Shown here: piece by piece, positions 1-62,583 of the stretch
Layout of the letters: each line of letters begins with the position of its first letter
How positions within the stretch are numbered: position 1 is the first letter of the stretch
From: a virus
Lineage: Duplodnaviria > Heunggongvirae > Uroviricota > Caudoviricetes
Length of the DNA stretch: 64,000 bases
Virus record (IMG/VR): IMGVR_UViG_3300026286_000004
Reading direction: 5' to 3' (one strand)
The notes under the pieces: model-generated
Told to the model about the DNA's origin: nothing
The model's input: the letters and a program-made list of their open reading frames with translations, nothing else
Databases searched by the model: none
Program-made: the position numbers and the translations under genes

Positions 1-18
1 ACCCGGGAGCAGGAGGTC

Positions 19-969
19 GTGGTCCCCAAAGATCGTCCGACCGTTTCGCAGCGGGTCAAGAAGCTGGTGTTGTGGACGATCCTGCTGATGTTCCCGTTGC
101 AGACGCTGGTGACGTTCGCCTCGATGCAGGCGACGCAGAAGGCGCAGCAGACCTCCCCGGAGGCCGGCGCGGCGAAGGTCAGCTCTCCGGGACGGTTCGT
201 GGCGACCCGCGCGATCGAGCAGTGGCTGGCAGCGACGCCGGCGCCCATCCCCGGCGGCCGGATCGTGTCCTGGGATGGCGCGACCACCCGGCAGGCCCCG
301 CTGGACGCGAACGGGAACCCGACGGCGGACTGGCTGTCCTCGACGGAGAACTTCACGATCGCCGACGCGTCCGGAAACCAGTTCACCACGGCGGTGCAGG
401 TGGCGCTGGATCCGCGCGGCGGCGCGAAGACGATCTCCGGGCCGTCGCTGCTCCCGGTGGCGACCGCCGCGTCCGATGAGTGGGTGTCGAACACCGACCC
501 GTGGCCCGGCCTTGACTCGTCCGTCGCGTCCGATCCGGTGAACGCCGCGATCGGGTCGTGGGCCGCGGCGTTCACCGGTGGTGATGCGGATGCACTTCGG
601 CTCGCCGTCGGCGACCCGAACCCGACGCACGGGTACGTCCCGCTGTCCGGCATGCAGCTCGACGGGGCAACGATCGACCGGGCCGCGAAGCTCGCGGATC
701 CGTCCCGGCTGTTGGTCCGGGCGGTGCTGACGTTCGCCGACCGGCAGGCCGACCCGACCTCCAGCATCAAGCCGGAAGTGTCGACCGTCATCTACGACGT
801 CCTGCTGGCGCGGGCCGACACCGCGGCCCCTGCCGTGGTCGCGTGGGGTCCGCCCGGTTCCGGGCCGTCCTTGGTTCCGTTCATGAACGCCGTGACCGCC
901 GTCGCGCGCGAGCCGCTGGTCACGCCGTCCCCGTCCTCCTCATCCCCGACCAGCGAAGGAAGCAAGTAG
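19..969 (+). CDS. hypothetical membrane protein with an N-terminal TM helix; possibly a VirB8/TcpC-like conjugation partner of the downstream ATPase
   Basis: GGAGG RBS at 11-15 followed by a GTG start. N-terminal hydrophobic helix LVLWTILLMFPLQTLVTFA. The stop overlaps the start of the 970 gene (TAGATG). No recognisable motif, so the function is inferred from context only. Confidence 0.5.
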   Translation: MVPKDRPTVSQRVKKLVLWTILLMFPLQTLVTFASMQATQKAQQTSPEAGAAKVSSPGRFVATRAIEQWLAATPAPIPGGRIVSWDGATTRQAPLDANGNPTADWLSSTENFTIADASGNQFTTAVQVALDPRGGAKTISGPSLLPVATAASDEWVSNTDPWPGLDSSVASDPVNAAIGSWAAAFTGGDADALRLAVGDPNPTHGYVPLSGMQLDGATIDRAAKLADPSRLLVRAVLTFADRQADPTSSIKPEVSTVIYDVLLARADTAAPAVVAWGPPGSGPSLVPFMNAVTAVAREPLVTPSPSSSSPTSEGSK

Positions 970-3900
970 ATGGCACGCGGCGGTATCAAGGACGTCCACT
1001 TCGACGTCACTCACCGGTGGGCGACGTCGATGGGGCGCGTCCACGACGGCGGGATCGTGCAGTCCTCTGACGGCGGTTCGACCTGGCTTTTTCGGTCCGT
1101 CCCGATGGGCCCGGTCGTTGATGCCCGGTCGCCGGCGGAATCCCTTCAGCCCGGCAGTCCGTTGATGCTCGCGTTCGACGAGCTGGCCGAACTCGCACCC
1201 CCGGCCCAGTTGAACCGGCGCCGGCTGGCGAAGTCCGGTTACCGCCGGATCCACTTGCTGCGGTTGCGGGTGCCGGCGAAGTATGTGCCGCCGGCGGAGT
1301 CGCAGCTGCGTGAGCACCTGTCGTCGACCTTCCACGACACGATGACGACCGCCTCCGTGCTGCTGATCGGGATCCAGTTGAAGGCGTCGGTGCGCCGGAC
1401 CGGCTGGCGCGACACGGCGGACGGGATCATTGCGTCCCTGACCGAGGGTGTCACTCCGGTCGGTGACTTCATGCGCGACGCCCGGCTGGTCGGCGACGCG
1501 ATGACGCGGTGCGGGCTGCAGGTGCCGACGGCGCAGCAGATGCAGCTGGCGAACTCGTGGTGGGCGGACTACGGCCAGCCGGACCCGCCGTACCTGATGC
1601 ACGCTGACCATCTGCACTCGTTCTCCTCGATGGAGGCGTTGCGGGCCGCCGCGAAGATCGGGCCGGACCGGTGCACCGACTGGGACAACATGCCCGGAAC
1701 GCACGCCCTCAGTTTCGCGACCGTTGCGGCGACGAACCTGTCGTACGTCCAAGCGGATAGCCCGTCCTCGCACTGGATGTCGGCGCTGCTGATGTCGGGT
1801 GCGCAGGCGATCTCGGTCCGCGGGCTGATCGAACCGCCGAAGGTGACCCGCGAGGAACTGCGGCGGATGCGCAAGGGCTACCAGGACGACATCCGGGAGC
1901 GCCTGAACGAGGGGAAGATGGAGCGCACCGAGCAGCTCGAGCTGGAACAGTCGCTGCAGGATGCGGAAGCCTTCTACGCCCAGGGCGGGACACCGACGCT
2001 GACGGACACCTCCGTCCTGGTCGCCTTTTCCGGCCGGCACCCGATCCACGGGTACGACCCGGTCCCGGTCGGGCAGCGTGCCGGGGTGACGCTCTACCCG
2101 ATGGTCAACCGGCAGCAAGAGGCATGGTCGGAGATGATGCCGTGCTCGAAGACGATGTCGAACCCGTATCTGCTGGACCTGCCGGCGCAGACGATCTCCT
2201 TCTCCGGCCTGCCGTCACTGTCGGTGGTCGGTGACAAGTCGGGAGCGCAGCCGGGATTCACCGAGACGGACAACCAGCCGGTCTTCATCGACCACATGGC
2301 GTCCGTCGACGAGGACACCCTCCCGATCGCGGTGATCGTGGGGCAGTCCGGGTCCGGTAAGGCGATGACGATTGACACGCGACTGCGGACGCCGTCCGGG
2401 TGGACGACGTTCGGCCTGGTCGATGTCGGCGACAAGGTCATCGGCTCGAACGGGCTGCCGTGCACGGTGCTGAACGTGACGACTCCGCAGGTCCGCGACG
2501 ACCTGCTCGAGGTCACCCTGAACGACGGCCAGTCGATGCGGGTCGACGGACAGCACCAGTTCGTCGCACGATTCCGCGGCTGGCCTGCCCGCGGGCTGCC
2601 GGAGCGGCTGGATGCGGCCAGCGGCCAGCTGGTCGAACTGGCCGAGTCGACCATCGACAAGGAGGTCGTGACCGCGCCGGCGCTGGCCCGGGAGTTGGCC
2701 GGCACGGGCGCAGGCGAGTTCTTCCCCTCCACGAACGCTGTCGCTGCGGCGCTGGCGATGATGGATGTCCGGCCGGGCACGCTCGGCCGGTACCGCAGAG
2801 CGGTCGCTCTGGCCGCCCTGGCAGCCCGGCTGAAGCAGCGTGCCAGCCATCCGGATGTCGCCGACGGCTGGATGGTCGTTTCGACGGCGGAGATGATCTC
2901 CACCGGTTCGGCGCAGCACTGGTCGCTGCCGTTGCCGGCCCCGGTCGCCGGCTCCGGGGAGAGCCTGGTTACCGATGCCCTTGCTGGGTGGCGCCCGTCG
3001 AAGGCGCTGCCGGAGCGGGTGATTTTCGCGCCAGTGGAGCAGCGCCGGGAACTGCTTCTGGACCTGATCCGCGGCCATGGGTCGATGCCGGGGGATTGCG
3101 AGTTCGCCGTGGCGGAGATGGCCGGCCTGTCCCCGGAAGGGGTCGAGTCGGTGCTGACGCTGGCCCGGTCGCTCGGGGTCTTCTCTGTCGAGGTCCCGTG
3201 GGGCGGTGGGGTCCGCCTCGCGATGACCGCGGACGGCTTCCCGGCCGTGTCATGCGTCGGGATCGAGACGATCGACGCGACCGGTGCGGACATCGTGTGC
3301 TGCATCGAGGTCGACTCGCCCGATTCGACGTTCCTGGTGGACGATCACGTGGTTACGCACAACACGCAGACGGCGCTCTTCTTGGCCGATCAGTACGCCC
3401 GGATGCGCACCAGCAGGGGCCAGCGCATCCCGATCGTGTTCGTCGACCCGAAGCTGGAGTCCAATCACTCCCGCACGGTCGCCCGGTCCGGCGGGACGGT
3501 CTTCTCGCTGGACCGGCTGATCACCTCCGACGGAGTGTTCGACCCGATCCGGTTCGCCAAGACGGCCGAGTCCGGGGCGTCCATGGCGGCCAGCATCATC
3601 CTCGAGGTCAACCCGTTCGGGTCGAAGATCGAGGACTACGAGACCGAGCTGATCCACTCGCTGAACTTCGGCGCCTCCAACGGGGCCCGGTGCACGATGG
3701 AAGCCCTGGCGATGGCTGAGACGGCCGGTCACGCATCCCGGGCGATGGTCGACCGGATCGAGAAGCTCGTTGCCGCGTCGACGTATTTCCGGGCGATGTG
3801 CGGCTCGGACCCGGAGGGTACCCCGCTGCAGGCGTCCGAGGGCATCACGTACATCATGCTCGGCTCGGCGCAGCTGAACTTGCCGGACCCGGACGCGAAG

Positions 3901-4491
3901 CACAAGGCCGACATCGGCCAGCGGACCGCGCTCGTGCTCGTCAAGGCGATGGTGTACGGCTCGATGATGGCGCTGGCCGGCCGGGAGGGCATCGTCATCC
4001 TGGACGAGGGCTGGATCTTCCTCGAGGCCGGCAAGTCCGAGGTCGTCCGTGCCGGGCGTCTGGCCCGGTCCTGGCAGGTGTGGCTGCTGCTGCTGACGCA
4101 GCGCGTCAAGGAGGTCGTGGACGCCGAGATCCAGCACTTCATCTCCCGCGGCGGGATCCTGCCGATGGAGGTGCAGTCGGAGGCGATCGCGGCGTGCCGG
4201 TTGTTCGGCCTGGAACCGACGGCGCAGCGACTGGAACGGATCACCGGGAAGGCGTCCCGCGCCGAGGGCGCATCGAACGCGCCGAACTGGAATTCGATGC
4301 GCGCGCTGCGTGACGACGACGGGAATGTGCTGCGTGGCTCGATCATGCTGTACTGCGACCAGAAGGGGCGCGCTGTCCCGGTCGAGGTGAAGATCCCACC
4401 GGCGTTCCTCGGGATCAGCTCGACGAGCCGGAAGGACATGCTCCGACGGGACAAGGCGTCCGCAGCAGTTCAGGATTCGTCCGCCGGTTAG
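970..4491 (+). CDS. VirB4/TrbE/TraC-family (conjugative T4SS-type) P-loop ATPase-like protein, interrupted by an intein
   Basis: 1173-aa ORF. Walker A GQSGSGK|T is split by an insertion at about residue 464. Walker B VILDEGW, then an LLLLTQ motif and an Arg-rich C-terminal domain. A ~460-aa N-terminal domain precedes the P-loop, as in VirB4-like ATPases. Confidence 0.6.
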   Translation: MARGGIKDVHFDVTHRWATSMGRVHDGGIVQSSDGGSTWLFRSVPMGPVVDARSPAESLQPGSPLMLAFDELAELAPPAQLNRRRLAKSGYRRIHLLRLRVPAKYVPPAESQLREHLSSTFHDTMTTASVLLIGIQLKASVRRTGWRDTADGIIASLTEGVTPVGDFMRDARLVGDAMTRCGLQVPTAQQMQLANSWWADYGQPDPPYLMHADHLHSFSSMEALRAAAKIGPDRCTDWDNMPGTHALSFATVAATNLSYVQADSPSSHWMSALLMSGAQAISVRGLIEPPKVTREELRRMRKGYQDDIRERLNEGKMERTEQLELEQSLQDAEAFYAQGGTPTLTDTSVLVAFSGRHPIHGYDPVPVGQRAGVTLYPMVNRQQEAWSEMMPCSKTMSNPYLLDLPAQTISFSGLPSLSVVGDKSGAQPGFTETDNQPVFIDHMASVDEDTLPIAVIVGQSGSGKAMTIDTRLRTPSGWTTFGLVDVGDKVIGSNGLPCTVLNVTTPQVRDDLLEVTLNDGQSMRVDGQHQFVARFRGWPARGLPERLDAASGQLVELAESTIDKEVVTAPALARELAGTGAGEFFPSTNAVAAALAMMDVRPGTLGRYRRAVALAALAARLKQRASHPDVADGWMVVSTAEMISTGSAQHWSLPLPAPVAGSGESLVTDALAGWRPSKALPERVIFAPVEQRRELLLDLIRGHGSMPGDCEFAVAEMAGLSPEGVESVLTLARSLGVFSVEVPWGGGVRLAMTADGFPAVSCVGIETIDATGADIVCCIEVDSPDSTFLVDDHVVTHNTQTALFLADQYARMRTSRGQRIPIVFVDPKLESNHSRTVARSGGTVFSLDRLITSDGVFDPIRFAKTAESGASMAASIILEVNPFGSKIEDYETELIHSLNFGASNGARCTMEALAMAETAGHASRAMVDRIEKLVAASTYFRAMCGSDPEGTPLQASEGITYIMLGSAQLNLPDPDAKHKADIGQRTALVLVKAMVYGSMMALAGREGIVILDEGWIFLEAGKSEVVRAGRLARSWQVWLLLLTQRVKEVVDAEIQHFISRGGILPMEVQSEAIAACRLFGLEPTAQRLERITGKASRAEGASNAPNWNSMRALRDDDGNVLRGSIMLYCDQKGRAVPVEVKIPPAFLGISSTSRKDMLRRDKASAAVQDSSAG
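2362..3363 (+). other. intein (334 aa) inserted between K and T of Walker A; class-3-like (Ala1, Cys in block F, Thr before the terminal HN); possible degenerate LAGLIDADG segment
   Basis: Block A is AMTIDTRLRTPSGW..VGDKV, block B is DGQHQF, block F is IVCCIEVD..STFLV and block G is DDHVVTHN followed by the +1 Thr. Excision restores GQSGSGKTQTALFL. The internal RRELLLDLIRGHGSM segment looks LAGLIDADG-like. Confidence 0.6.
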
Positions 4492-4526
4492 CGTGTTCAC
4501 CTCGTGCTCCCGCACTCATGTATGTC

Positions 4527-5657
4527 ATGAGTCTTGATCGCGTCATTCCCGCACGCCTTCCCGCAGCCCAGATCGACAACGAAGCCACCGCCATTGCCAG
4601 GGCGCACCAGAGCGGTGAGGTGGACTACGCCACGGCGATGACGTGGCTGAGCCGGCTCATCGTCCTGTCGACGATCCCGCACGAGGAGATGGTCACCCGC
4701 TTGCGCAGCGGGGCGTTGCGCAGGGAGGATGCCGTCACGGCTGAAGACCAGCTCCGGGACATGTTGTGCGACAAGCTCGATCCGACTCCGGGCGATACTC
4801 GGGTGAGGGCGGAGGTCGACTTCAAACTGCTGGCCGGCGGGTCGAGCTTTTCGGCGTGGATGCGCAGCTTCAGCGGCGCGCTGCTGGACCGCACGATCAT
4901 CCGTGGCGTGGGACGGTATCGCACCAAGAACATGCTGTCGCTGACAGGTTCGCTGGCGGATGCCGCCGGGTCGGACTATGTCACGGACGAGGACGCGGAG
5001 CGCGCCGACGACGAGTTGCATGTTCTCCACCGTCAACTGCGGGGCGCGAGCGAGGGGGCCAGCGTTATCGCGCGGTCGACGTCGTTGCTGCGGTACCGCC
5101 AGCTGCCGGAGCCGCGCCGCCCGGTTACGGAAGACGGCCGCCGGCAGGTGCGCGAGGCGATCAAGGCGGGCACGCTGGCGCAGTATCTGCGGTCCGGCCA
5201 CACCGGTCCGGTGCAGGATCTCTTTGCGGACTTCACGGCGGAGCAGGTTGGTGATCTGGACGCGTTGTCACTAGAACTGCTCGCAGAGTTGGCTATCACG
5301 CCGCTGCCGGCGATCTCTCGCACGGTCCAGCGGGAACTGGTCGCCTGGGCTGCTGCTCAGGTCCCGCGTGAGCACGCCGCGGCGGCTCGGGCCGTCACGG
5401 ATGCGTGGCTGACGCAGCGCACCGAGATCACGGGCGGCCGGGAAGGCCCGGTCGAGGTGAAGTCCGATCAGCAGCGGCTGCAGGAGCGCTCCGACTTCTG
5501 GACGGCGGCATCGGTGTTGCTGGATTCCTTCTGCTACGAGCTGGGGGAGACCATCGACGAGATCTCGACGGCCTTGCGGGAGCGGTACTTCACCATCGAG
5601 CGAGAGCGCTTCTTGAGCGCCCCGGAGGCGGCTCCGAGGAGTCAGACGACGGCCTGA
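4527..5657 (+). CDS. hypothetical protein
   Basis: Clean ORF with protein-like composition. A class-1 start motif (GCGTGTT-N18-TCATG-N6-ATG) precedes ATG 4527, and its first element overlaps the TAG stop of the upstream gene. Confidence 0.5.
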   Translation: MSLDRVIPARLPAAQIDNEATAIARAHQSGEVDYATAMTWLSRLIVLSTIPHEEMVTRLRSGALRREDAVTAEDQLRDMLCDKLDPTPGDTRVRAEVDFKLLAGGSSFSAWMRSFSGALLDRTIIRGVGRYRTKNMLSLTGSLADAAGSDYVTDEDAERADDELHVLHRQLRGASEGASVIARSTSLLRYRQLPEPRRPVTEDGRRQVREAIKAGTLAQYLRSGHTGPVQDLFADFTAEQVGDLDALSLELLAELAITPLPAISRTVQRELVAWAAAQVPREHAAAARAVTDAWLTQRTEITGGREGPVEVKSDQQRLQERSDFWTAASVLLDSFCYELGETIDEISTALRERYFTIERERFLSAPEAAPRSQTTA

Positions 5658-5778
5658 TCCACCCGGCCGCCGGGAACGCGCCTGTCTGCGGCAAAGAGGC
5701 GGTGGAGATGTCTCGATGAGCCCCGCGCATATCTACATCACCACTGTTCCCGCACTTCGATGTTAGGACCGACCTCTC

Positions 5779-8700
5779 ATGGCAGCATCCGCCTCCCCGG
5801 CGACCCCCGGATTGACGATCAAGCGCATCCACACCACCGCGGGTGTTCACCCGTACGACGAGGTCGACTGGGAGGGCCGGGACGTCATCCAGACGAACCG
5901 GCGCACCGGCGAGACGATCTTCGACCAGCGTGGCGTGGAGTTCCCGACGTTCTGGTCGGAGAACTCATCGACGATCGCGGTCACGAAGTATTTCCGCGGC
6001 AAGCACGGCACCCCCGAGCGGGAGCACAGCCTCCGGCAGCTGATCGACCGGGTTGTGCTCACGTACGGCAAGGCGGGCCGCGAGCACGGCTACTTCGCCA
6101 CCGAGGATGACGCTGTCATCTTCGAGCACGAGCTGACGTACGCACTGCTGCACCAGATGTTCTCGTTCAACAGTCCGGTCTGGTTCAACGTCGGCACGAA
6201 GGCGAAGCAGGCCGTCTCGGCTTGCTTCATCCTGTCGGTCGCCGACTCGATGGAGTCGATCCTGAACTGGTACACCGAAGAGGGCATGATCTTCAAGGGC
6301 GGCTCGGGCGCCGGGGTGAACCTGTCCGCCATTCGCTCCTCCAAGGAGTTGCTCTCCTCCGGTGGCACGGCGTCCGGCCCGGTCTCGTTCATGCGTGGTG
6401 CGGACGCCTCCGCTGGCGGAATCAAGTCCGGTGGCGCGACCCGTCGTGCCGCCAAGATGGTCGTCCTCGACGTCGACCACCCCGACATCGTCGAGTTTGT
6501 CGAGACCAAGGCCCGCGAAGAGGACAAGATCCGCGCCCTGCGTGACGCCGGCTTCGACATGGACCTCGGCGGCAAGGACATCAACTCCGTCCAGTTCCAG
6601 AACGCCAACAACTCGGTCCGGGTCACGGACGAGTTCATGCGAGCCGTCGAGGCCGGGTCCGGCTTCGACTTGATCGCCCGCACCACCGGCGAGGTCGTCA
6701 AGTCCGTCGACGCCCGCGACCTGTGGCACCGGATCGCGAAGGCCGCGTGGGAGTGCGCCGACCCGGGCGTCCAGTACGACGGCACGATCCAGGACTGGCA
6801 CACCAACCCGGTCACCGGCCGGATCACCGCGTCCAACCCGTGTTGCTTCGTCGGGGACACCCTGGTGATGACCGGCGACGGGGATTACCGCACGATCCGC
6901 GGGATCACCGAGGATGTGGCCGCCGGGATCGACGTCGACGTCATGTCGTGGGATGCCGCCGAACGCTGCTTCACGATCAACCAGGTCAAGAAGGGCTGGG
7001 TCGCCGGCCGGACGAACAAGCTGGTCCGGCTGCGCACCTCCGCCGGGGCGGCAACCGTTTCGACGCCGGAGCACAAGCACATGCTCGTTGACGGCACCTG
7101 GGTGGAGGCGCAGGACCTGCTCTCCGGGATGCAGCTGCGGGCGCATGCCGACGAGATCGTCACGGTTGTCTCGGCGACGCTGTCCACGGACGGGCCTGAG
7201 GTCGACGTGTACGACCTCGAGGTCGAAGACACCCACACCTTCCTCGTCGGTGAACTGGGCCGCGACCCGGTCGTCGTGAGCAACAGCGAGTACATGTCCA
7301 TCGACAACAGCTCGTGCAACCTCGCGTCGATCAACCTGCTGAAGTTCCTGCGCGACGACGACACGTTCGATGCGCAGCGGTTCGCCGACCTGTGCGAGCT
7401 GGTCATCACCGCGATGGACATCTCGATCTGTTTCGCGGAGTTCCCGACGAAGGCGATCACGAAGAACACCCGCGACTATCGTCAGCTCGGCATCGGGTAC
7501 GCGAACCTCGGCGCGCTGCTGATGGCGACCGGGCACCCGTACGACTCCGACTCGGGCCGTCAGGTTGCGGCCAGCATCACGTCGCTGATGTCGGCTGCCT
7601 CGTACCGCCGGTCCGCGGAGCTGGCCGGCGTGTTCGGACCGTACGCCGGGTATAAGAAGAACACCGGCGCGCACCTGCGGGTCATCGGCAAGCATCACGC
7701 GGCGAACATCGACCTTCGGGTGACGGACGCCTTCGCCGCCCCGATCCACGACCTCGCGGGAGCCGAATGGGAGGCTGCGGAGCGTCTCGGCGTCCGTCAG
7801 GGCTTCCGGAACGCGCAGATTTCACTACTCGCGCCCACTGGCACGATCAGCTTCTTGATGAACTGCGACACGACCGGTATCGAGCCGGACTTCTCCCTGG
7901 TGAAGTTCAAGAAGCTCGTCGGCGGCGGGTCGATGAAGTTCGCGAACCTGACGATCCCGCGGGCGCTGCGCAAGCTCGGCTACGACGATGACACCGTGTC
8001 CGCGATCGTCGCGCACATCACCGAGCACGGCCACGTCCTGGACGCCCCCGGCTTGAAGACCGAGCACTACGCGATCTTCGACACCGCGATCGGGGCCCGG
8101 TCGATCTCCCCGATGGGCCACGTCAACATGATGGTTGCCTGCCAGCCGTTCCTCAGTGGCGCCATAAGCAAGACGATCAACCTTCCGGAGAGTGCGACCG
8201 TTGAAGATATCGAGGCCGTCTACATGGCCGGCTGGAAGCTGGGCCTGAAGGCTCTGGCGGTGTACCGGGACAACTGCAAGGTTGGTCAGCCGCTGTCCGA
8301 CGGAGCGGTCAAGCCGGTCGCTGTCGCTGACCCTGCGGCGCCCGCTGCAGCCGTCCCGGCGACGATCACGGCACCGGTCCCGGTCCGTGTTCGGCTGCCG
8401 CGCAAGCGGGTCAGTGAGACGACGTCGTTCACGGTCGGTGGGGCTGCCGGGTACTTGACGGCGGGCACCTATCCGGACGGTCGTATCGGGGAGTTGTTCA
8501 TGAAGTTCGGCAAGCAGGGCTCGACCCTGGCCGGCGTCATGGACTCGTTCTCGATCGCGATCTCCATCGCGCTGCAGTACGGGGTGCCGTTGGAGACGTT
8601 GGTGGAGAAGTTCACGAACACCCGGTTCGAGCCGGCCGGCCTGACAGACGACGCGGATATCCGGATAGCGCAGTCGCCGATGGACTACGTCTTCCGCCGG

Positions 8701-9033
8701 CTTGCTCTCGACCACATGGACTTCGAGACCCGGGCGTCGTATGGCATCTACACGGCAGCGGAGCGGGCCCGTCACCTCGAGACCGGGTCGTACGAGCCCG
8801 AGCTGGTCGAGGAGGAGATGGACGGATTGTCCGACGGCATCGGTGAAGACATGGTCCCGGCTCCGAAGCCGGCCCCGGCCGCGCTCCCGGCGCCGGTCCG
8901 CCATGACGCGCTGAACGAGGGCTTGCGCAAGTCCGAGGATGCCCCGCTGTGCTTCACCTGCGGGGTACGCATGGTGAGAGCTGGAAGTTGTTTCTCGTGC
9001 GAATCGTGCGGGGCGACGTCCGGTTGTAGCTAG
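5779..9033 (+). CDS. nrdJ: class II (adenosylcobalamin-dependent) ribonucleotide reductase NrdJ, intein-containing
   Basis: The N-terminal region and the NPC catalytic-cysteine motif are recognised from memory as NrdJ-like. The ORF carries a C-terminal CxxC..CxxC Zn ribbon and is 1084 aa including the intein. Confidence 0.85.
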   Translation: MAASASPATPGLTIKRIHTTAGVHPYDEVDWEGRDVIQTNRRTGETIFDQRGVEFPTFWSENSSTIAVTKYFRGKHGTPEREHSLRQLIDRVVLTYGKAGREHGYFATEDDAVIFEHELTYALLHQMFSFNSPVWFNVGTKAKQAVSACFILSVADSMESILNWYTEEGMIFKGGSGAGVNLSAIRSSKELLSSGGTASGPVSFMRGADASAGGIKSGGATRRAAKMVVLDVDHPDIVEFVETKAREEDKIRALRDAGFDMDLGGKDINSVQFQNANNSVRVTDEFMRAVEAGSGFDLIARTTGEVVKSVDARDLWHRIAKAAWECADPGVQYDGTIQDWHTNPVTGRITASNPCCFVGDTLVMTGDGDYRTIRGITEDVAAGIDVDVMSWDAAERCFTINQVKKGWVAGRTNKLVRLRTSAGAATVSTPEHKHMLVDGTWVEAQDLLSGMQLRAHADEIVTVVSATLSTDGPEVDVYDLEVEDTHTFLVGELGRDPVVVSNSEYMSIDNSSCNLASINLLKFLRDDDTFDAQRFADLCELVITAMDISICFAEFPTKAITKNTRDYRQLGIGYANLGALLMATGHPYDSDSGRQVAASITSLMSAASYRRSAELAGVFGPYAGYKKNTGAHLRVIGKHHAANIDLRVTDAFAAPIHDLAGAEWEAAERLGVRQGFRNAQISLLAPTGTISFLMNCDTTGIEPDFSLVKFKKLVGGGSMKFANLTIPRALRKLGYDDDTVSAIVAHITEHGHVLDAPGLKTEHYAIFDTAIGARSISPMGHVNMMVACQPFLSGAISKTINLPESATVEDIEAVYMAGWKLGLKALAVYRDNCKVGQPLSDGAVKPVAVADPAAPAAAVPATITAPVPVRVRLPRKRVSETTSFTVGGAAGYLTAGTYPDGRIGELFMKFGKQGSTLAGVMDSFSIAISIALQYGVPLETLVEKFTNTRFEPAGLTDDADIRIAQSPMDYVFRRLALDHMDFETRASYGIYTAAERARHLETGSYEPELVEEEMDGLSDGIGEDMVPAPKPAPAALPAPVRHDALNEGLRKSEDAPLCFTCGVRMVRAGSCFSCESCGATSGCS
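6844..7284 (+). other. mini-intein (147 aa, no endonuclease domain) inserted immediately after the catalytic Cys of NPC
   Basis: Sequence context is ASNPC|CFVGDTLVMTGDG...VYDLEVEDTHTFLVGELGRDPVVVSN|SEY. It has Cys1, a C-terminal Asn and a +1 Ser. The penultimate residue is Ser rather than His. Confidence 0.75.
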
Positions 9034-9563
9034 ACAGTTTGACCAGCACGGCAGGTTCGGGATGAACGTTTTCCCGGGCCTGCGGTGCTGTTTCTTGGGT
9101 CGGCTGCCGCATCGCTCTTGGCATGAACCATCGAACGGCAGATGACCCGGTCGGGGCAGTACCCGCTGTGGCTGGTGCCGCCGGACGACCAGTGCCCGAC
9201 GTACCGTCCGTCGGTGAAGCTGACCCTCGCCCGGCGCGTGGACGAGATGGTGCTGGCGACGCGGAACTGCGGCGAGAGGACGGTGCTGATCCTGCCTCCG
9301 GGCGGCTGCCACGCTCTCGGGGCTGCGCTGAGCCGGCTGGTGCGGACACGGTCACCGCTGCCGGTCTCTGCCTCGCTGGGGCGGTGTCACGGTGAAAGGT
9401 TTTCCCGTACGCCCATCAGGCTGCGGTGCCGGCGGTTCTGATCGACGCCCGGATCGCCCGGCTGGGCGGCCTGTTGCGGCGCCGGGTGCAGTTCGGGCTG
9501 ATCGAACTGCGCGATGCCTCGAGCATCTCGAGGAAATTGCTGAGCGCAGCCGGCTGAATCAAA

Positions 9564-9603
9564 CGAACAGGGTGCCGAGGATCTCTCCCCGGCACCCTGT
9601 TCG
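9564..9603. terminator. perfect 14-bp inverted repeat hairpin (cgaacagggtgccg / cggcaccctgttcg) with an 11-nt loop
   Basis: Seen directly in the sequence. It lies downstream of the small minus-strand ORF and shows no U-tract, as is usual in high-GC genomes. Confidence 0.4.
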
Positions 9604-9619
9604 GCGTGTGCTGAATCAG

Positions 9620-9684
9620 CCGTTGCGCCACTCCCAGTGGTCACCCTTGGTCACGGTGTTGCCGTTGCGCCACTCCCAGTGGTC
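9620..9684. repeat. two copies of a 23-bp direct repeat ccgttgcgccactcccagtggtc with a 19-bp spacer
   Basis: Exact copies at 9620-9642 and 9662-9684. Confidence 0.8.
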
Positions 9685-9763
9685 GGCCGCGGACAGACGC
9701 AGATGTCGCGCCGACGAAGACCGCGGTGGCCGCGAGCGTCACTGCTGCAATGCGACGAATCAT
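9641..9763 (-). CDS. possible small signal-peptide ORF (40 aa) preceded by an AGGGAG RBS
   Basis: Translates as MIRRIAAVTLAATAVFVGATSASV.., with RBS agggag 7 nt upstream. A Trp-rich repeat DHWEWRNG is encoded twice in the adjacent -1 frame. Confidence 0.2.
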   Translation of the reverse strand: MIRRIAAVTLAATAVFVGATSASVRGRPLGVAQRQHRDQG

Positions 9764-9899
9764 GTCGGCTCCCTGCTCTCTCGATTCCATGGGGTCGGTG
9801 CGTCAACATCCGGATTGATCACGCTCACGCTCCCCTGCTGAGATGTATGCGGCAAGGCACCTTGCCCCCGATGCGTAACGACCCTCTCTTACCGGAGTC

Positions 9900-10754
9900 A
9901 TGGATGGCATGACTGATCTCGTTGCACCTGGCGACCCGCGGCACGGCACGTACACGGGCTACAAGCAGCTTCGCTGTCGCTGCGAAGACTGCCGGGCAGC
10001 TCAGGCCCGGCGGTACCGGGAGAGGGTGCGCAAGGGCCTTCCGAAGAACGACCCGAAGCACGGGACGCTGACGGGGTACAACAACTACGGGTGCCGGTGC
10101 GAGCCCTGCTGCGAGGCGTATGCCGCGTACCGCCGCAAGAAGTTGTCCAACGGTCTTCCCGAGGGTGACTCGCGGCATGGGACGCTAACGGGGTACAACC
10201 ACTATGGGTGCCGGTGCGAGCCCTGCTGCGAGGCGGATGCCGCGCACCGCCGCAAGAAGATGTCCGGCGGCCTTCCCGAGGGTGACTCGCGGCATGGGAC
10301 GCTGACGGGGTACAACAAATACGGGTGCCGGTGCGATAAGTGCGGCGAAGCCCGTTCCGTGTACCGCCGCAAGAAGATGTCCGGCGGCCTTCCCGAGGGT
10401 GACTCGCGGCATGGGACGCTGACGGGGTACAGACACTATGGGTGCCGGTGCGAGCCCTGCTGCGAGGCGGATGCCGCGCACCGCCGCAAGAAGTTGTCCG
10501 GCGGCCTTCCCGAGGGCGATCCGCGGCACGGGACGCTGACGGGGTACAACCATCACGTATGCCGGTGCAAGCCCTGCTGCGAGGCGCTTGCCGCGTACCG
10601 CCGCAAGAAGGCGTCCGGCGGCCTTCCGAAGAACGACCCGAAGCACGGGACGACGACGGGGTACGACAACTACGGGTGCCGGTGCGAGTCCTGTCGTCGA
10701 GGGTATGCCGCGTACCGGCGAGAACGCAGGCAACGGCCTGACCCCGCCGCCTGA
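9900..10754 (+). CDS. Cys-rich tandem-repeat protein: seven 40-aa repeats, each with an [28 protein letters not shown] motif (putative Zn-binding or DNA-binding module)
   Basis: Seven near-identical 120-bp DNA repeats. Each unit is P(E/K)(G/N)D(S/P)(R/K)[20 protein letters not shown](D/Y)AA(H/Y)RRKK(L/M)SGGL. Class-1 promoter motif upstream at 9873-9911. Confidence 0.7.
9945..10735 (+). repeat. seven ~120-bp near-identical tandem direct repeats (coding)
   Basis: Seen directly. Shadow ORFs on the opposite strand (9898..11013, 10185..10733) are artefacts of this repeat. Confidence 0.85.
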
Positions 10755-10767
10755 CCGGCTGTCTCCG

Positions 10768-10783
10768 GCAAAGAGGGAGTATG
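10768..10783 (+). promoter_or_regulatory. class-2 start element GGCAAAGAG-N5-ATG (thyA)
   Basis: One of 9 copies. The others lie before starts at 13033, 20746, 25599, 31913, 38212, 43021 and 60520(-), plus an orphan at 5690. Confidence 0.55.
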
Positions 10784-11572
10784 CGACAGTACCTCGACCT
10801 GATGCAACGAGTCCTCGACGAGGGTGTGGAGCGCCCGGACCGCACCGGCACGGGCACGCTCGGGGTCTTCGGCCACCAGATGCGCTTCGACCTCGCCGAC
10901 GGGTTCCCCGTCGTGACCACCAAGAAGCTGCACCTGCGCTCGATCATCGGTGAGCTGCTGTGGTTCCTGCGCGGCGACACGAACGTGGCGTGGCTGAACG
11001 AGCGCGGCATCACGATCTGGGACGAGTGGGCCGACGAGAACGGCGACCTCGGGCCGGTATACGGCTACCAGTGGAGATCGTGGCCGGCACCGGATGGCCG
11101 CAGCATCGACCAGATCGCGGACGTGATCGCCTCGATCCGGTCCAACCCGAACGGCCGCCGGCATGTCGTGTCCGCATGGAACCCGGCCGACGTCGACAAG
11201 CAGGCCCTGCCGCCGTGTCACGCACTGTTCCAATTCCACGTTGCGGACGGACGCCTGTCGTGCCAGCTGTACCAGCGGTCTGCGGACATCTTCCTCGGTG
11301 TCCCGTTCAATATCGCCTCGTATGCCCTGCTCACCCACCTCGTCGCCCAGCAGACCGGGCTTGAGGTCGGCGACTTCGTGCACACCCTCGGCGATGCCCA
11401 CCTCTATCTCAACCACCTCGATCAGGCCCGCGAGCAGCTGGCCCGCGAGCCCTTCCCGCTGCCGACCCTGCGATTGACGCCGCGGGAGTCCATCGACGCC
11501 TACGAGTTGGAGGACGTCGAGCTGGTCGGCTACCAGGCGCACCCGTCGATCAAGGCGCCGATCGCGGTATGA
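10781..11572 (+). CDS. thyA: thymidylate synthase ThyA
   Basis: [38 protein letters not shown]..., ending PIAV. Confidence 0.9.
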
Positions 11573-11630
11573 GCACGTGGTGGAGCCGGTGCCAAGACCG
11601 GACCGTGAAGTCAACCGTGGGGATGGCAGC

Positions 11631-12872
11631 ATGATCACCTTGATCGCGGCGGTCGCGCAGAACCGGGTGATCGGGAACGGGCCACAGATCCCGTGGCGGG
11701 TACCGGGGGAGCAGGAGCATTTCCGGGACACCACGATGGGCCACGCCGTCATCATGGGCCGGGCCACGTTCGACTCTATCGGCCGGGGGCTGCCGGGCCG
11801 GCGCGTCATCGTCGTCACGCGCGCACCGATCGTTTCCCATCCGGACGTCGAGACCGCGTCGAGCCTGGATGACGCGATCGCGTTGGCCGGGGCCGGCACG
11901 GAGATTTTCATCGCCGGCGGCGGGCAGCTCTACGAGGCGGCGATGCCGTACGCGGATCGGTTGATCCTGTCGGAGATTCCGCTGGCGCCGGACGGCGACG
12001 TGCTGTTCCCGGAGTTCACGCTGTTCGACGGCCGGGATCTGCTGACCCGTCCAAGCCTCGATGCGTGGGTGGAGACCAGCCGCGCCGACCACTGGTCCTT
12101 TCAGGTGGTCACGTACGCCCGCCCGGTGCCCGTGCACGACCCGGACGCCCCGGTCCTGGTCGCCGGCGACTGGCACGGCGAGGTTAGGCTGGCGGTGGCT
12201 GCGGTCCAGGCCGCGAAGGGGCGCGGGATCGACCTGATCCTGCACACGGGCGATTTCGGGATCTGGCGCGGCGACGAGTTCTTTCTCGACGCCCTGCAAC
12301 GCGAGCTGGAGGCTGCCGGCGTCCAGTTGTGGTTCGTCGATGGCAACCATGAGGACTTCGAGCGGTTGTACGCCTATGCGCCGGACCCGGATGGCCGCCG
12401 CCGGGTGCGCCGGTCGGTGTGGCATCTGCCGCGCGGGCACCGGTTCGCCGCGGCCGGCCGGTCGTGGCTGGCGTGCGGCGGGGCGGCGTCGATCGACCGA
12501 TCGTTCCGGACCCCGGTTCTCAACTGGTGGCCGCAGGAGACGATCACGCAGGCGGATCTACACCGGTGCGCCATCGGCGGCCGCGTTGATGCCCTGCTTG
12601 TCCACGAGGCCCCGGATGAGTCGCCGACGTTGCGGGCCGCGTATGCCAGCCCGTCGCAGTGGCCGGAGTCCGGACTGGCCGAGTCGGAGCAGTCGCGCCG
12701 GATGATCTCGGCGCTGGTCGCGGCGACCGGGCCGCGGTTCCTCTTCCACGGTCACCATCACCTGCGGTACGTCGACGTCCTCGACGAGTTGACGATCACA
12801 GGCCTCGGGACGCTCCCGAGCGACAACCTGGCCGTCTTCGACGGCGAGACGATCGAGCTGCTCGGACCGTGA
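11631..12872 (+). CDS. folA: dihydrofolate reductase (N-terminal ~165 aa) fused in frame to a calcineurin-like metallophosphoesterase domain
   Basis: DHFR N-terminus MITLIAAVAQNRVIGNGPQIPWRVPGEQEHF. Phosphoesterase motifs follow from about residue 175: GDWHGE, TGDFG, VDGNHE, FHGHHH. The ATG at 11631 has a GGGGATGG RBS-like upstream sequence and sits 59 nt after the thyA stop. Confidence 0.8.
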   Translation: MITLIAAVAQNRVIGNGPQIPWRVPGEQEHFRDTTMGHAVIMGRATFDSIGRGLPGRRVIVVTRAPIVSHPDVETASSLDDAIALAGAGTEIFIAGGGQLYEAAMPYADRLILSEIPLAPDGDVLFPEFTLFDGRDLLTRPSLDAWVETSRADHWSFQVVTYARPVPVHDPDAPVLVAGDWHGEVRLAVAAVQAAKGRGIDLILHTGDFGIWRGDEFFLDALQRELEAAGVQLWFVDGNHEDFERLYAYAPDPDGRRRVRRSVWHLPRGHRFAAAGRSWLACGGAASIDRSFRTPVLNWWPQETITQADLHRCAIGGRVDALLVHEAPDESPTLRAAYASPSQWPESGLAESEQSRRMISALVAATGPRFLFHGHHHLRYVDVLDELTITGLGTLPSDNLAVFDGETIELLGP

Positions 12873-45679: not shown

Positions 45680-48600
45680 TCAGAAGCTCCATTCGTCCGC
45701 AGTTTTTGCCGGCACCGGCACCGGGTCCGGGACGTCGCCGAAGTTCCAGTCGTCGGCGTTGGCCGGCTTCGGTGCGGGCCGCTCGACCGGTTCGGAAACG
45801 AAGTCCCAGCCCTCGTCGTCTGCGTCGGCGAGGTCGACGTCGTTGACCACGTCCTTGACCACCTGCTCGACCGGATCTTCGCCGAAGTCCCAGCCGTCGT
45901 CGGCCGGTTCCGATTTGTTGTCCGGCCGCGCGTCCGGGGCGTCGATGGACCACAGGTCGTCGTCGTCGTCGGTCTCTGTCTCGACTGGCTCCGACGCGCC
46001 GAAGACATCCCACGCATCGTCCGTTTCCGGCTCGCTGACCGGGCTGGCGGGCTCGCTGGCAGCCTCCTGCTCCAGACCGGGCTGATCGGTCACGGGCTGC
46101 CCGTCCAGTGCTTCTGCGGCCTCGGAAGCCTCGTCGGCAAAGTCGTCCAGGTCCAGCTCTATCTCTACGGCGTTCTCCAGATCGCCAAGGTCCAGCTCGA
46201 TCTCGTCTTCCAGGTCCCATGCCTCGTCCAGGTCGATGTCCTCGACGGCCGGGCCGCGGTCCTTGCGGACCTGGATGAACGGGGACAGGTCTACGGGCAC
46301 GACCGGTTCGCGCTCCTGCGCGATCTTCGCACCCATCACGGCAGTATCGGTGAAGGCGACCTGCACCGTGTGCGGCATACCGGTCGACGGTTCGTAGATG
46401 CCACGGCCCGGCGGGATCGCGCCCGGGAAGATCGGGGCTTCTTCGGCACGCCGCAGCGCCGACATCCGGTCGCCGGAGGTGGTCGCGCCGACGAGCAGCC
46501 GGGCCAGGTTCGTCTTCAGGCTGCCGAGGCCGCCGATCTTCGCCAGGTCGTCCTGGCGCAACTTCTGGCCGCCGAGCACCAGCGAGACACCCGCGGACCG
46601 GGCCTCCCGGGTGATCTTCCCGGCCAGCGACCCGATCGTGTCCTTGAAGCTGTTCTCCAGCAGCAGCAGTTGCCGCTCTTCCTCGAGGTCCGGGTCGTCC
46701 ATCGGGGTCTTCGGCACGGATGACTTCTCGATCAACGACGTGAACTCGTCGATGAACACGACCAGCCTGCGCGGACGAACCTCATCCGGCAGCTTGTCGA
46801 TGGACTCGGTCCCGTGCTGCTTGTTCAGATCCTTGCGGCGCAGTACCTCCTGGTAGGCCCACCGCATCGCCGCTGCACCGTTCTGCCACGTGTCGGCCGT
46901 CGCGAGAGCGAACGACGTCGCGTACTTGAAGTCGGCGGCCCCCTTGACCGGGTCGACGACGATCGCGTCATGCCCGGCCAGCAGCACGCCGGTCAGCAGG
47001 TTCGTCATCGCGACCGACTTACCTGACCCGGACCCACCGATCACGCCCAGGTGCGGCGACTCCTTCATGTTCCAGTTGTCCGGGACTCCGGCCACGTTCA
47101 CGGCCAGCGGGATCGACAGCGACCCGTCCGGGATGCCGTCCATGATCAGTTCGACGCGCGAGGGCATCGGGTCCCGCTCGGAGACCTGCAGCACCAGCCG
47201 GGCGGCCGTGGTCCGCTCCCGGTCAAGCTCGATGAAGTCGTTCCCGGTCGAGGTCCGCAACGTCGGCAGGATCTTCACGATCCCCGGAATCGACGCACCC
47301 TGCGGCAGGTCGAACGTCAACACGGTCACCTGCGGGTTCGTCTCGACCGGCTCCACCTTCGCCAGCACCGGGGTGAGCGCGCCCGGGATGTCGAGTTTCG
47401 ACTTCAGCCACGCCTGGTCCCAGTCGAGGGCCACAACCTTGTCGCGGTCCTTGACGGAGACGATCTCGACGGACGACGGTCTCGCGCCGGCGTAGATGAT
47501 GCACCCGTCCGCGGCAGCATCCACGCGCAGCCACGGCGTCGCCAGTGCCTGCCGCATCCGGTCCGCCGCGCCGCGCACGTCCGCGAGGGTCACCCCGCCA
47601 TACAGCCGCAGCGTGATCTCCCAGACGGACGGCTCGGCGAACCGCCTGTTCCCGGACGGCTCCGGGGTCAGCGCGCGAACCGCGACGACCTCGGGGCGCG
47701 CGAGACGAGCCGCATCGAAGGCATGGTTGACGTGCGAGGCGAGCAACCACTGGTACGCCGGCGTCGGCCGGGATGCGGACACGACCTTCTCCGGTGCCGT
47801 CGGCAGGCCCGGTTCGGAGGACCACGTGACGCAGAACGCGGTTGCGTGGCGGGTCGCCTTCCGGCCCACGCTCGGCGGGGTCCACCCGGTCACAGACACG
47901 AACGGGGCCGCGTTCAACGTGGACGCCAGTTTCGTCTCCGCCTTCGGGTTGCCGTGCTCCATCGGGTCCATGCCCTTGCGTACCTGGAAGACGGTGTGCT
48001 TGATCCGCTTCCCCTGGTAGGTGTCCTCGCTCGAGACCCGGGGCGCGATCGTAGGCGGGTTCACCCCCTGCTTGAGCACCTCCGTCCAGACGCCGTTCCA
48101 CCAGTCCTCTTCGAAGATCTCGCCCAGCGCGTCCGGGAATTTCGGGTCGATCGTCTTCAGATCGTCCGTCGCGGCGCCGAGGAACAGGTGCCCGCCGTCG
48201 GGTGACCGGTGGTCGATCGCAGCGTCCAGTCGCGTCCCGCCGCCGAGCATCGGAGCGAACCCGAGGGCGCGTGCCGTGGTCCAGCCCGGGCCTTCCGGCC
48301 ACGCCCCGTTCACCTGCCACATCGCGACCGGTGAGTCGTCGGTGTGCATCGCCGTGACCGCGGTGACCATGACGGGCGCGACCTTGAGCGCGTCGCAGAC
48401 CTGCTGAACCCAGGTGCGGACTGCGGTGTCCAGGACCTCCGGGGATGTTGCCGGATCGCCGATGTCGGGGATGTCGCCGGACGGGGAGATGACGATCGCG
48501 AACTTGCGTGGGTGGATCGTCCCGGTGACCTCGACCCCGTCCACGTCGTTCGGTCTCGGGATGAGTGTCATGTCCACGCCGGCGCCGACGGTCGGCGCGA

Positions 48601-50131: not shown

Positions 50132-50703
50132 TACGCCACCAGTGACCGGATGCGTTGCACGATGCGCGGGTCGGCCTGCTTCGTGACAGGGACTGCCCGC
50201 CGCACGACACGCTCGAGCGCTGCGCCGTGGACCAGCCTCGCGGACGGGAACGTCGCCGCCCACAGCGACACCTTCCCCTCCCGCCGGGACGGCCACACGA
50301 CGACGACCGGGACGGTCAGGTGCACGTCATACATGGACAGGTACGCCGTGAACGCCTCCTGCGCCATCTGCACGGACTTCTTGTCGCACGCCGCGAACGG
50401 CTGGAAACCGCGGCGGGTCTTCCCGCCGAACGTCCACAGGAAACCCGGCTTCCACGACTTGCTGTCGATGAGCATGACGCGGTTGCTGGCGATGACCACG
50501 TGGTCGATGTTGATCGACATGCCGGGGATCGGGACACTCACGTCATGCATGACCGTGATCTCGGTACTGCCGGCCATCTGGTTGAGTACGTACGCGGTCG
50601 CCGCCTCGCCGCGGGTGCCGGCGCTGACCGTGCCCGCGTTCGTGGCCCACCTGGTGTCACCGGAGAGCGAGGTCGCGGCCCGTCCGATGATCTGCCCGCT
50701 CAC
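50131..50703 (-). CDS. NERD-like (nuclease-related domain) protein
   Basis: NIDHVVIASNRVMLIDSKSWKPG matches the NERD core. GTG start. Confidence 0.5.
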   Translation of the reverse strand: MSGQIIGRAATSLSGDTRWATNAGTVSAGTRGEAATAYVLNQMAGSTEITVMHDVSVPIPGMSINIDHVVIASNRVMLIDSKSWKPGFLWTFGGKTRRGFQPFAACDKKSVQMAQEAFTAYLSMYDVHLTVPVVVVWPSRREGKVSLWAATFPSARLVHGAALERVVRRAVPVTKQADPRIVQRIRSLVA

Positions 50704-60573: not shown

Positions 60574-61212
60574 ATGACGACCCCGTTCAACGAGAGCGAT
60601 CATCCGCGCGGAGCAGGTGGGCAGTTCGCGCCGAAGGCTCGCTCGGAGCAGGCCCGGCTGGACGCTCCATACGGCGACGGGCACCCGTGGAACCAGGATG
60701 CGGAGCAACGGGAACGGTTGGAGGTCGAGCTGGCTGGGCAGATCGCCGCGTTCCCGCATTTCGTGGCCGACCCGCGAGCGTGCGCCGCGCGCATCTTCCA
60801 GATCGTCGCCGTGTACCGCGGTGTCCCATCCGAGGTCGCCGAAGCCGCGACACCGGATGCCGTGGCGGCAGCCAGCCGCGGCGGGCCGTCCGGCGAGGGG
60901 ATGTACCGGGCGATGCTTCCGGTGATCGACGCCGCCCAGGCCCGCGAGTACGCCCCGAAACCGCAGCCGGACCGGATCCCCGACGTCCCGACGCTGAGAG
61001 AAGTCGAAGCCGCGAAGGCGTACCTGGATGCGCTGGAGCCGGTCCGGCAGATGTACCGGCCCGACTGGGAGCGGAGGAACGGCGGGTACGGGCCGACCGT
61101 CGCGCAAGTTCGCACACATGCCCATGAACGCTCCTTACAGGATGACCGGATCCGTGCCGCGAAAGTCGAGTACGACCGGCTGAAGGCGGCCTACGACGCC
61201 GCGAACGGCTAG
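60574..61212 (+). CDS. family-X N-terminal module protein (213 aa)
   Basis: N-terminus MTTPFNESDHPRGAGGQFAPKARSEQARLD. Promoter variant CCGCACACATACTGGGCATGACGACC. Confidence 0.55.
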   Translation: MTTPFNESDHPRGAGGQFAPKARSEQARLDAPYGDGHPWNQDAEQRERLEVELAGQIAAFPHFVADPRACAARIFQIVAVYRGVPSEVAEAATPDAVAAASRGGPSGEGMYRAMLPVIDAAQAREYAPKPQPDRIPDVPTLREVEAAKAYLDALEPVRQMYRPDWERRNGGYGPTVAQVRTHAHERSLQDDRIRAAKVEYDRLKAAYDAANG

Positions 61213-62489: not shown

Positions 62490-62583
62490 CGCTTCTTCTC
62501 TCCCGAAAGCACTTGTGCTGCAAGGTTTCGCAGCCACCGGGCGGTGTCACTCAGGCCGTCGCGGAAAGCCTGCGCGGCAGCCC

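Follow-up and report, generated by a model that had tools for sequence, protein, structure and literature searches.

The question raised by the locus described here is whether a ribonucleotide reductase (RNR) gene whose reading frame is interrupted beside the catalytic cysteine can still give rise to an active enzyme. It is posed by the open reading frame (ORF) at 5779..9033 (+) of a 64,000-nucleotide stretch of DNA filed as IMG/VR virus record IMGVR_UViG_3300026286_000004 (the window), which encodes the reductase NrdJ as a precursor of 1084 residues. Directly behind the codon of the catalytic cysteine lie 147 codons (6844..7284, +) that, judged by conserved residues, profile matches and colinearity, are a class 1 mini-intein without a homing endonuclease, for which splicing is predicted. 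This intein sits between the radical cysteine and the serine of the NPC/SEY finger loop (a slash marks a splice junction throughout), and we propose that the serine at its penultimate position, Ser146, leaves splicing efficient, a reading that we regard as likely and that is weighed below against its alternatives.

The host gene is defined by profile scans and by comparison with solved enzymes. The ORF, which includes the intein and ends with a stop codon at 9031..9033, scored 1453 bits against NF005122 in the NCBIfam scan, also matched TIGR02504, and contains the Ribonuc_red_2_N (PF08471), Ribonuc_red_lgC barrel (PF02867) and TSCPD domains. By these matches it is a class II adenosylcobalamin-dependent reductase, NrdJ, and its N-x-C-x-E finger-loop motif is restored by splicing, SNPCSEY being aligned with the structures 7b9q and 1xje. 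The frame is intact across 3.25 kb with a GC content at third codon positions (GC3) of 0.90, and antisense ORFs such as 5965..7749 and 6090..6860 (both –) were set aside as high-GC artefacts, the coding pattern of GC1, GC2 and GC3 and the homologs being confined to the plus frame. The N-extein (5779..6843, +; 355 residues) ends in GRITASNPC and is colinear with intein-free orthologs up to NPC. Its last residue, Cys355 (codon TGT, 6841..6843, +), is aligned to C322 of the T. maritima NrdJ (1xje, motif TNPCGE), the thiyl-radical cysteine of the finger loop. The C-extein (7285..9030, +; 582 residues) runs through the TSCPD domain and a cysteine-rich tail and begins with the +1 serine (codon AGC, 7285..7287, +), the predicted C-extein nucleophile. 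An earlier interpretation made from the letters of the DNA, the sequence-only reading, had taken this serine to stand where the extein would normally have glycine; NPCSEYM is in fact native in this NrdJ clade and in 7b9q, and glycine is found in the short enzymes of the T. maritima type (NPCGE).

That the 147 codons are not part of the reductase follows from the same comparison. Their translation reads CFVGDTLVMTGDG…ELGRDPVVVSN, with CFVGDTLV at the N-terminal end, and the junction DNA is AAC CCG TGT / TGC TTC GTC … GTC GTC GTG AGC AAC / AGC GAG TAC ATG, which sets the junctions at NPC/C and VVVSN/S. Among the best 120 homologs of the whole protein, approximately 75 orthologs of 950-1000 residues read SNPC/SEYMS(L/I)DNSSC with nothing inserted. 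Removal of the segment in silico gives an NrdJ of 937 residues in which the motif SNPCSEYMS is restored, and this protein aligns with the intein-free orthologs in a single high-scoring segment pair (residues ~2-937, 70-72% identity) and with the solved NrdJ 7b9q without a gap across the junction. By colinearity the segment is an in-frame insertion at a conserved site and not native sequence.

The profiles for intein ends point the same way. TIGR01445 (intein_Nterm) gave 31.5 bits (cut-off 24.5) over precursor residues 356-433, which are intein residues 1-78, and TIGR01443 (intein_Cterm) gave 24.0 bits (cut-off 15.6) over intein residues 121-147, or 23.0 bits over precursor residues 476-503 when the whole ORF was scanned. 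PT-HINT scored 32.2 bits (cut-off 27.7), the Pfam family Intein_splicing fell just below its cut-off, and a sequence search of the PDB found the RecA mini-intein of M. tuberculosis (Mtu) with E = 4e-4. An AlphaFold model (AF2), for which the input included 25 allelic inteins, is an all-beta protein with one HINT domain (pLDDT 95.8, pTM 0.89), and Foldseek matched it to solved inteins with E values of ~1e-8 and TM scores of 0.78-0.84 to Mtu RecA, Ssp DnaB, Npu DnaE and NrdJ-1 (8ubs). The modeled segment is accordingly described here as having a predicted HINT fold.

The top Foldseek match by E-value was the bacterial intein-like (BIL) domain 2lwy, and this, together with the match to the Pfam PT-HINT family, is what could be said for a lineage-specific insertion native to NrdJ, or for a BIL domain that is retained in the mature protein or cleaves without splicing. 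However, such a segment is missing from the ~75 otherwise colinear orthologs and would interrupt the most conserved active-site loop of the enzyme, both TIGR models of intein ends are above their cut-offs, and the full intein signature of Cys1, terminal asparagine and +1 serine nucleophile is in place, while BILs lack a +1 nucleophile and lie in variable regions of proteins that are not conserved, not in conserved sites of housekeeping enzymes (PMC4031507). We rejected the BIL assignment on the +1 serine and the insertion within that loop, and the chance that the segment is native in either sense is, in our estimate, negligible.

The class of the intein can be read from its catalytic residues, the inventory of which for class 1 was defined by Mills et al. 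(2014; PMC4031507). Block A provides the nucleophile Cys1 (TGC, 6844..6846, +), which is invariant in a 26-sequence alignment of the family. Block B (7063..7074, +) contains T74-P-E-H77, with Thr at B:7 and His at B:10 in the numbering of PMC4031507, and both are likewise invariant. Block F, VYDLEVEDTHTF (7207..7242, +), contributes Asp124 and His131 in the family alignment, and these two assisting residues, which are less conserved in class 1, were assigned to F:4 and F:13 of PMC4031507 by motif, without counting block positions. Block G, V-V-V-S-N (7270..7284, +), ends with the penultimate serine (AGC, 7279..7281, +) and the terminal asparagine (AAC, 7282..7284, +). Hence Cys1, T74, H77, D124, H131, N147 and Ser+1 are all present, and of the C-terminal His-Asn dipeptide of class 1 the asparagine (Asn147, G:7) is retained and G:6 is Ser rather than His. 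The intein has 147 residues, within the range of ~130-170 for a mini-intein, carries neither a LAGLIDADG nor an HNH insert between its blocks B and F, and gave no match to any homing endonuclease family in profile scans. Two other classes were considered and rejected. Class 2 (the KlbA type, orthologs of Mja KlbA with Ala1, Ser at G:6 and Cys+1) has only the G:6 serine in common with an intein that has Cys1 and Ser+1 and lies in NrdJ, and class 3 (the WCT type, which lacks a nucleophile at position 1 and has Trp at B:12, Cys at F:4 and Thr at G:5) disagrees at Cys1 and at B:12, F:4 and G:5, which are His, Asp and Val, respectively. The sequence-only reading had placed a canonical class 1 mini-intein of 147 residues at 6844-7284, directly after the catalytic cysteine and with a penultimate serine; its coordinates are exact, its class and penultimate residue are borne out by the residues above, and the two checks it had named, an intein profile search and a comparison of the exteins with intein-free orthologs, which might have carried the segment, both came out in its favor.

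On this basis we put forward a predicted splicing pathway in four steps, inferred from residue conservation and fold. Translation would give the 1084-residue precursor, which cannot, we infer, be an active reductase because 147 residues interrupt the loop that bears the radical cysteine. In the first step the peptide bond between Cys355 and Cys356 would be converted to a thioester by an N-S acyl shift at Cys1, helped by Thr74 and His77 of block B, and in the second step the side-chain oxygen of Ser+1 would attack this thioester to form a branched ester. Cyclization of Asn147 to a succinimide would then release the intein, a third step in which the penultimate residue, here serine, usually assists. 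Finally, an O-N shift would form a normal Cys-Ser peptide bond and complete the 937-residue NrdJ. Lacking an endonuclease, the intein would be passed on vertically with the gene. Its GC3 (0.91) lies between those of the two exteins (0.92 and 0.88), and in codon composition it does not differ at all from the host gene.

Ribonucleotide reductases are the second most intein-rich bacterial proteins, with 211 inteins (Novikova et al., 2016), and the commonest insertion site in RNRs lies directly N-terminal of the thiyl-radical cysteine, one residue upstream of the site used here (Dassa et al., 2009; PMC2677866). The description of NPC/S as a known RNR hotspot in the sequence-only reading therefore stands in part: the site is known, and it is heavily used in actinobacterial NrdJ, but it is not the commonest one. 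By its junctions the window intein occupies the site first described for NrdJ-1, one of the two split inteins from ocean metagenomes, NrdJ-1 and NrdJ-2, which lie one residue C-terminal of the commonest site at a position that had not been observed before then (Dassa et al., 2009; PMC2677866). The host is a class II RNR in each case, the insertion point is the same (NPC/C…N/SE), and Cys1 and the +1 Ser are shared. The fusion structure of NrdJ-1 (8ubs) has the same HINT fold and gave the highest TM score in the Foldseek search (TMq 0.84) at ~18% identity in the structural alignment. Unlike the window intein, which is contiguous, NrdJ-1 is naturally split, its two genes flanking one for an endonuclease.

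Closer relatives are contiguous mini-inteins at the NPC/S site of actinobacterial NrdJ (e.g. P0002-P0032, in metagenome-assembled Nocardioidaceae, Dermatophilaceae and Mycobacteriales), which are allelic to the window intein. Specifically, 29 of the 120 nearest NrdJ homologs carry one, with lengths of 142-147 residues, similar blocks A, B and F, and 36-43% identity to the window intein; in all 29 the penultimate residue is His and B:12 is Tyr or Phe, compared with Ser and His in the window intein, whose own copy is on a plasmid-like element. Nearest homologs and a profile search with the intein family (21,833 hits at E ≤ 0.001) together yielded 60 distinct inteins at NPC/C…N/SE(Y/F). The intein alone found no match at E ≤ 0.001 in an index of 5.8 billion proteins, for which tool it is too short and divergent, and a six-frame scan of the window with the family model found only the NrdJ intein. 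The neighboring site, NP/C…[H/A]N/CSEY, in the same active-site loop and the same NrdJ clade but one residue away, is occupied by a different lineage (CFPADQRVV… or CFTADTLVAV…, 162-394 residues) in which the catalytic cysteine itself is the +1 nucleophile, and some of these inteins are listed with the precomputed Pfam family PF14528. Both sites can be filled at once: an NrdJ of 1830 residues from the representative library (P0143) has inteins on either side of the catalytic cysteine within residues 348-880 and reads SSNP/CLRRGS…GLIVHN/C/CFVGDTLVET…SVIVSN/SEYMF, so that its thiyl-radical cysteine is a one-residue extein, the +1 nucleophile of the first intein and the –1 residue of the second.

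What, then, does the loss of the penultimate histidine mean? Ser at G:6 is, from this comparison, derived in the window intein, because the 29 nearest allelic inteins without exception have an HN terminus (of the VVVHN type) and none has Ser; the codon AGC is two base changes from CAC. Nevertheless, the change is not unique. Of the 60 distinct inteins at this site, 51 have His at G:6, eight have Ser and one has Arg, and the Ser alleles are scattered among the His alleles in a rough neighbor-joining tree, whose long branches give it low reliability. Judged by its recurrence in the family, Ser146 is a recurrent natural variant and not a one-off defect. At G:6, Gly, Lys, Ser and Phe are all known from natural class 1 inteins, and His is typical but not obligatory (PMC5050341, PMC4031507); archaeal class 1 inteins without the penultimate His were described by Chen, Benner and Perler (2000), as cited in PMC4031507. 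In particular, class 1 inteins of mycobacteriophages often have Gly, Lys or Ser in place of the penultimate His that actinobacterial inteins keep, a Gly variant found in nature outperforms its own His mutant in splicing, and the block F His is able to assume the role of the penultimate one (Kelley et al., 2016; PMC5050341). The window intein, on an actinobacterial mobile element and with Ser where its NrdJ relatives have His, matches that pattern, although the mycobacteriophage inteins lie in phage proteins (RDF, terminase and others) and this one lies in NrdJ on a plasmid-like element. It also retains the block F His. In our reading Ser146 is a variant that is tolerated or tunes the rate, rather than a mark of inactivation, the third step being carried, we suggest, by the block F Asp and His together with other residues.

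Residues that might compensate for the lost histidine were sought at two positions. A "His swap", in which the His at B:12 (TPEHKH) would replace that at G:6, was considered on the grounds that B:12 spatially adjoins block G in class 3 inteins. It is unsupported, as the window His is a singleton among 129 full-length relatives, and B:12 in the 12 other inteins of that set with Ser at G:6 is Phe, Tyr, Trp or Ile. The second candidate is a His located six positions ahead of the terminal Asn (H-x-[VI]-[VI]-V-S-N), which is present in seven of the nine other non-His alleles versus 18 of the 51 His alleles and may, from this distribution, be a back-up His; it should be noted that these counts follow one subfamily and are not independent. 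For the window intein no compensating residue can be named at either position, because its B:12 His is a singleton and the upstream His is absent.

Several points weigh against efficient splicing. Mutation of the penultimate His blocks Asn cyclization in many inteins, and all 29 nearest allelic inteins have kept it. The window intein has Asp, not His, six residues before Asn, at the position where most other non-His alleles have the possible back-up. NrdJ is plasmid cargo, and the host probably has an RNR of its own, which would relax selection for efficient splicing. Lastly, the databases searched hold no relative of more than 66% identity, as would be needed to gauge purifying selection on the intein. 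From the same facts it could be argued that the intein is decaying and impaired in splicing: the lost His would cripple Asn cyclization, and dead precursor, branched intermediate or cleavage products would be tolerated by way of the chromosomal RNR. The long branch of the intein (only 36-43% identity to its relatives) and the status of nrdJ as accessory cargo, missing from the syntenic region of the plasmid pACHL01 described below, fit this explanation. However, the ORF has stayed intact over its whole length with a host-like GC3, all other catalytic residues are kept, the Ser variant recurs in seven further lineages at the same site, and splicing has been demonstrated for natural inteins without this His, at times at a faster rate than in their His mutants (PMC5050341). 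Moreover, the sequence is identical across many independent samples: several JGI and ENA samples together yielded 15 contigs that encode the identical protein, and an NCBI assembly encodes a one-residue NrdJ variant that retains the same intein. The difference noticed by eye between the two 1084-residue versions is a single residue outside the intein, residue 214 (about 6418..6420), which reads SAGGIKSGG in the window and the JGI and ENA copies and SAGTIKSGG in the NCBI variant (P0121). We consider a decaying intein unlikely, and prefer the efficiently spliced one.

The junction also sets two cysteines side by side, Cys355 and Cys356, which invites the proposal that the intein is conditional and serves to switch the enzyme on after translation, for example with redox gating through this pair or through C42, or with slowing by Ser146, so that the RNR would be active only in particular conditions. 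Redox-trapped intein precursors are known (PDB 3nzm, which was among the Foldseek matches), and Kelley et al. (PMC5050341) argue that variation of the penultimate residue tunes the splicing rate in mobile-element inteins. Yet the Cys-Cys junction is common to all 60 allelic inteins and follows from the insertion site, C42 is not conserved in the family, and the fast-splicing NrdJ-1, described as ultra-fast (PMC13123727), has the same junction (PMC2677866). We hold such a switch to be very improbable. A related but more specific idea is that the change from His to Ser at G:6 is adaptive tuning and not drift, with Asn cyclization being rate limiting or dependent on conditions, such that the intein would serve as a timer or switch for a plasmid module of deoxynucleoside triphosphate (dNTP) supply (nrdJ-thyA-folA) and the C/S-site family of NrdJ inteins would toggle repeatedly between His and Ser at G:6 with the upstream loop His as a back-up in most lineages. 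We offer this as a speculation that is quite unlikely to hold. Were such toggling real, the family would provide a natural series for dissecting catalysis of the third step without the canonical His.

The element that carries the gene looks, from its gene content, like an actinobacterial conjugative megaplasmid of ~161 kb from a high-GC host and not like a phage. JGI contigs of 78 kb and 161 kb match the window at 100% identity, and a complete element of ~161 kb is suggested because three independent assemblies end at nearly equal lengths (160,903, 160,953 and 161,078 bp). An ATPase (ORF 970..4491, 1173 residues) contains AAA_10 and weakly matches a VirB4-type model of conjugal-transfer ATPases. 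In tblastn searches its intein-free homologs were found only on megaplasmids of Arthrobacter, Pseudarthrobacter and Curtobacterium and, more distantly, on Bifidobacterium plasmids (27-45% identity), and in BLASTP it is 40-51% identical to the homolog on pACHL01. With pACHL01 the window also shares a gene order, namely a PD-(D/E)XK nuclease, three hypothetical genes, the ATPase, a hypothetical gene and a helicase, in between which nrdJ, thyA and a fusion of dihydrofolate reductase (DHFR) with a phosphoesterase are extra cargo. An FtsK/TrwB-like protein of 1537 residues (45680..50296, –) is, by its similarity, the likely coupling protein or DNA translocase in conjugative transfer of the element. 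Among the ORFs scanned none was recognized as a phage structural gene, and megablast of the nrdJ gene against phages and plasmids gave no match. A phage origin was rejected when the tblastn matches of the ATPase to phages proved to cover only its intein, its extein matching actinobacterial megaplasmids. The sequence-only reading had correctly counted two inteins within 9 kb, one in a conjugative ATPase and one in an RNR, but the actinophage-type element with which it found them consistent gives way to the plasmid-like one.

The second intein, of 334 residues (2362..3363, +), splits the Walker A motif GSGK/T of the VirB4/AAA_10-like ATPase and was confirmed against the intein-free pACHL01 homolog, which reads GTGSGK/TQALLWLA where the window reads GQSGSGK/AMTIDTRLRTPSG…DDHVVTHN/TQTALFLA, the intein starting with AMTIDT. 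With Ala1, a block F Cys (VCCIEV) and the end THN/T it resembles class 3, but at B:12 Phe takes the place of Trp. Toward its N terminus it is similar to inteins of phage terminases and helicases, its middle of ~190 residues contains no recognizable homing-endonuclease family, and the family-model scan found it unrelated to the NrdJ intein.

Around nrdJ the genes form a small metabolic group. The DHFR, fused to a calcineurin-like metallophosphoesterase (431 residues; 11577..12872, +), directly follows thyA, and by annotation nrdJ, thyA and this fusion are a block for dNTP and thymidylate supply that is missing from the syntenic pACHL01 region. Between nrdJ and thyA lies a cysteine-rich ORF of 284 residues (9900..10754, +) made of approximately seven tandem repeats of 39 residues (117 nucleotides, ~85% identical), whose Pfam matches are weak (E 3e-6 and 6e-4) and nowhere significant over a single stretch. 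Upstream of nrdJ no inverted repeat was found in 5600..5800 and no convincing NrdR box was seen by eye in 5640..5778, and an Rfam scan of the whole window for regulatory RNAs gave no match. The window also encodes an anti-restriction-like metalloprotease, a NAD-dependent ligase, a RecG-like helicase and a protein of 441 residues with WGR and PARP catalytic domains (61209..62537, –). A further JGI contig, L002 (3300026283, Ga0209368_1000257), is 99.97% identical to window positions 1..11572, up to the stop codon of thyA (11572), and continues with chromosome-type genes (folA, enoyl-CoA hydratase, azlCD, SIR2, dapB and P450), not plasmid genes; its joint is an assembly artefact, chimeric by way of a thyA common to both, or else marks genuine recombination or integration.

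Inteins of this kind are well populated and already described, and the current understanding of inteins and of RNRs is unchanged by this one. For annotation it means that the mature NrdJ is a protein of 937 residues, not 1084, and that the gene product is intein containing, with an activity predicted to depend on splicing. The intein itself is one more case, borne here by a plasmid-like element rather than a phage, of the published loss of the penultimate His by inteins of actinobacterial mobile elements. The allelic set may also be a source of compact inteins suited to a Cys(–1)/Ser(+1) junction, and with Ser and His alleles at one identical site the NrdJ family offers a potential natural panel for the study of Asn cyclization.

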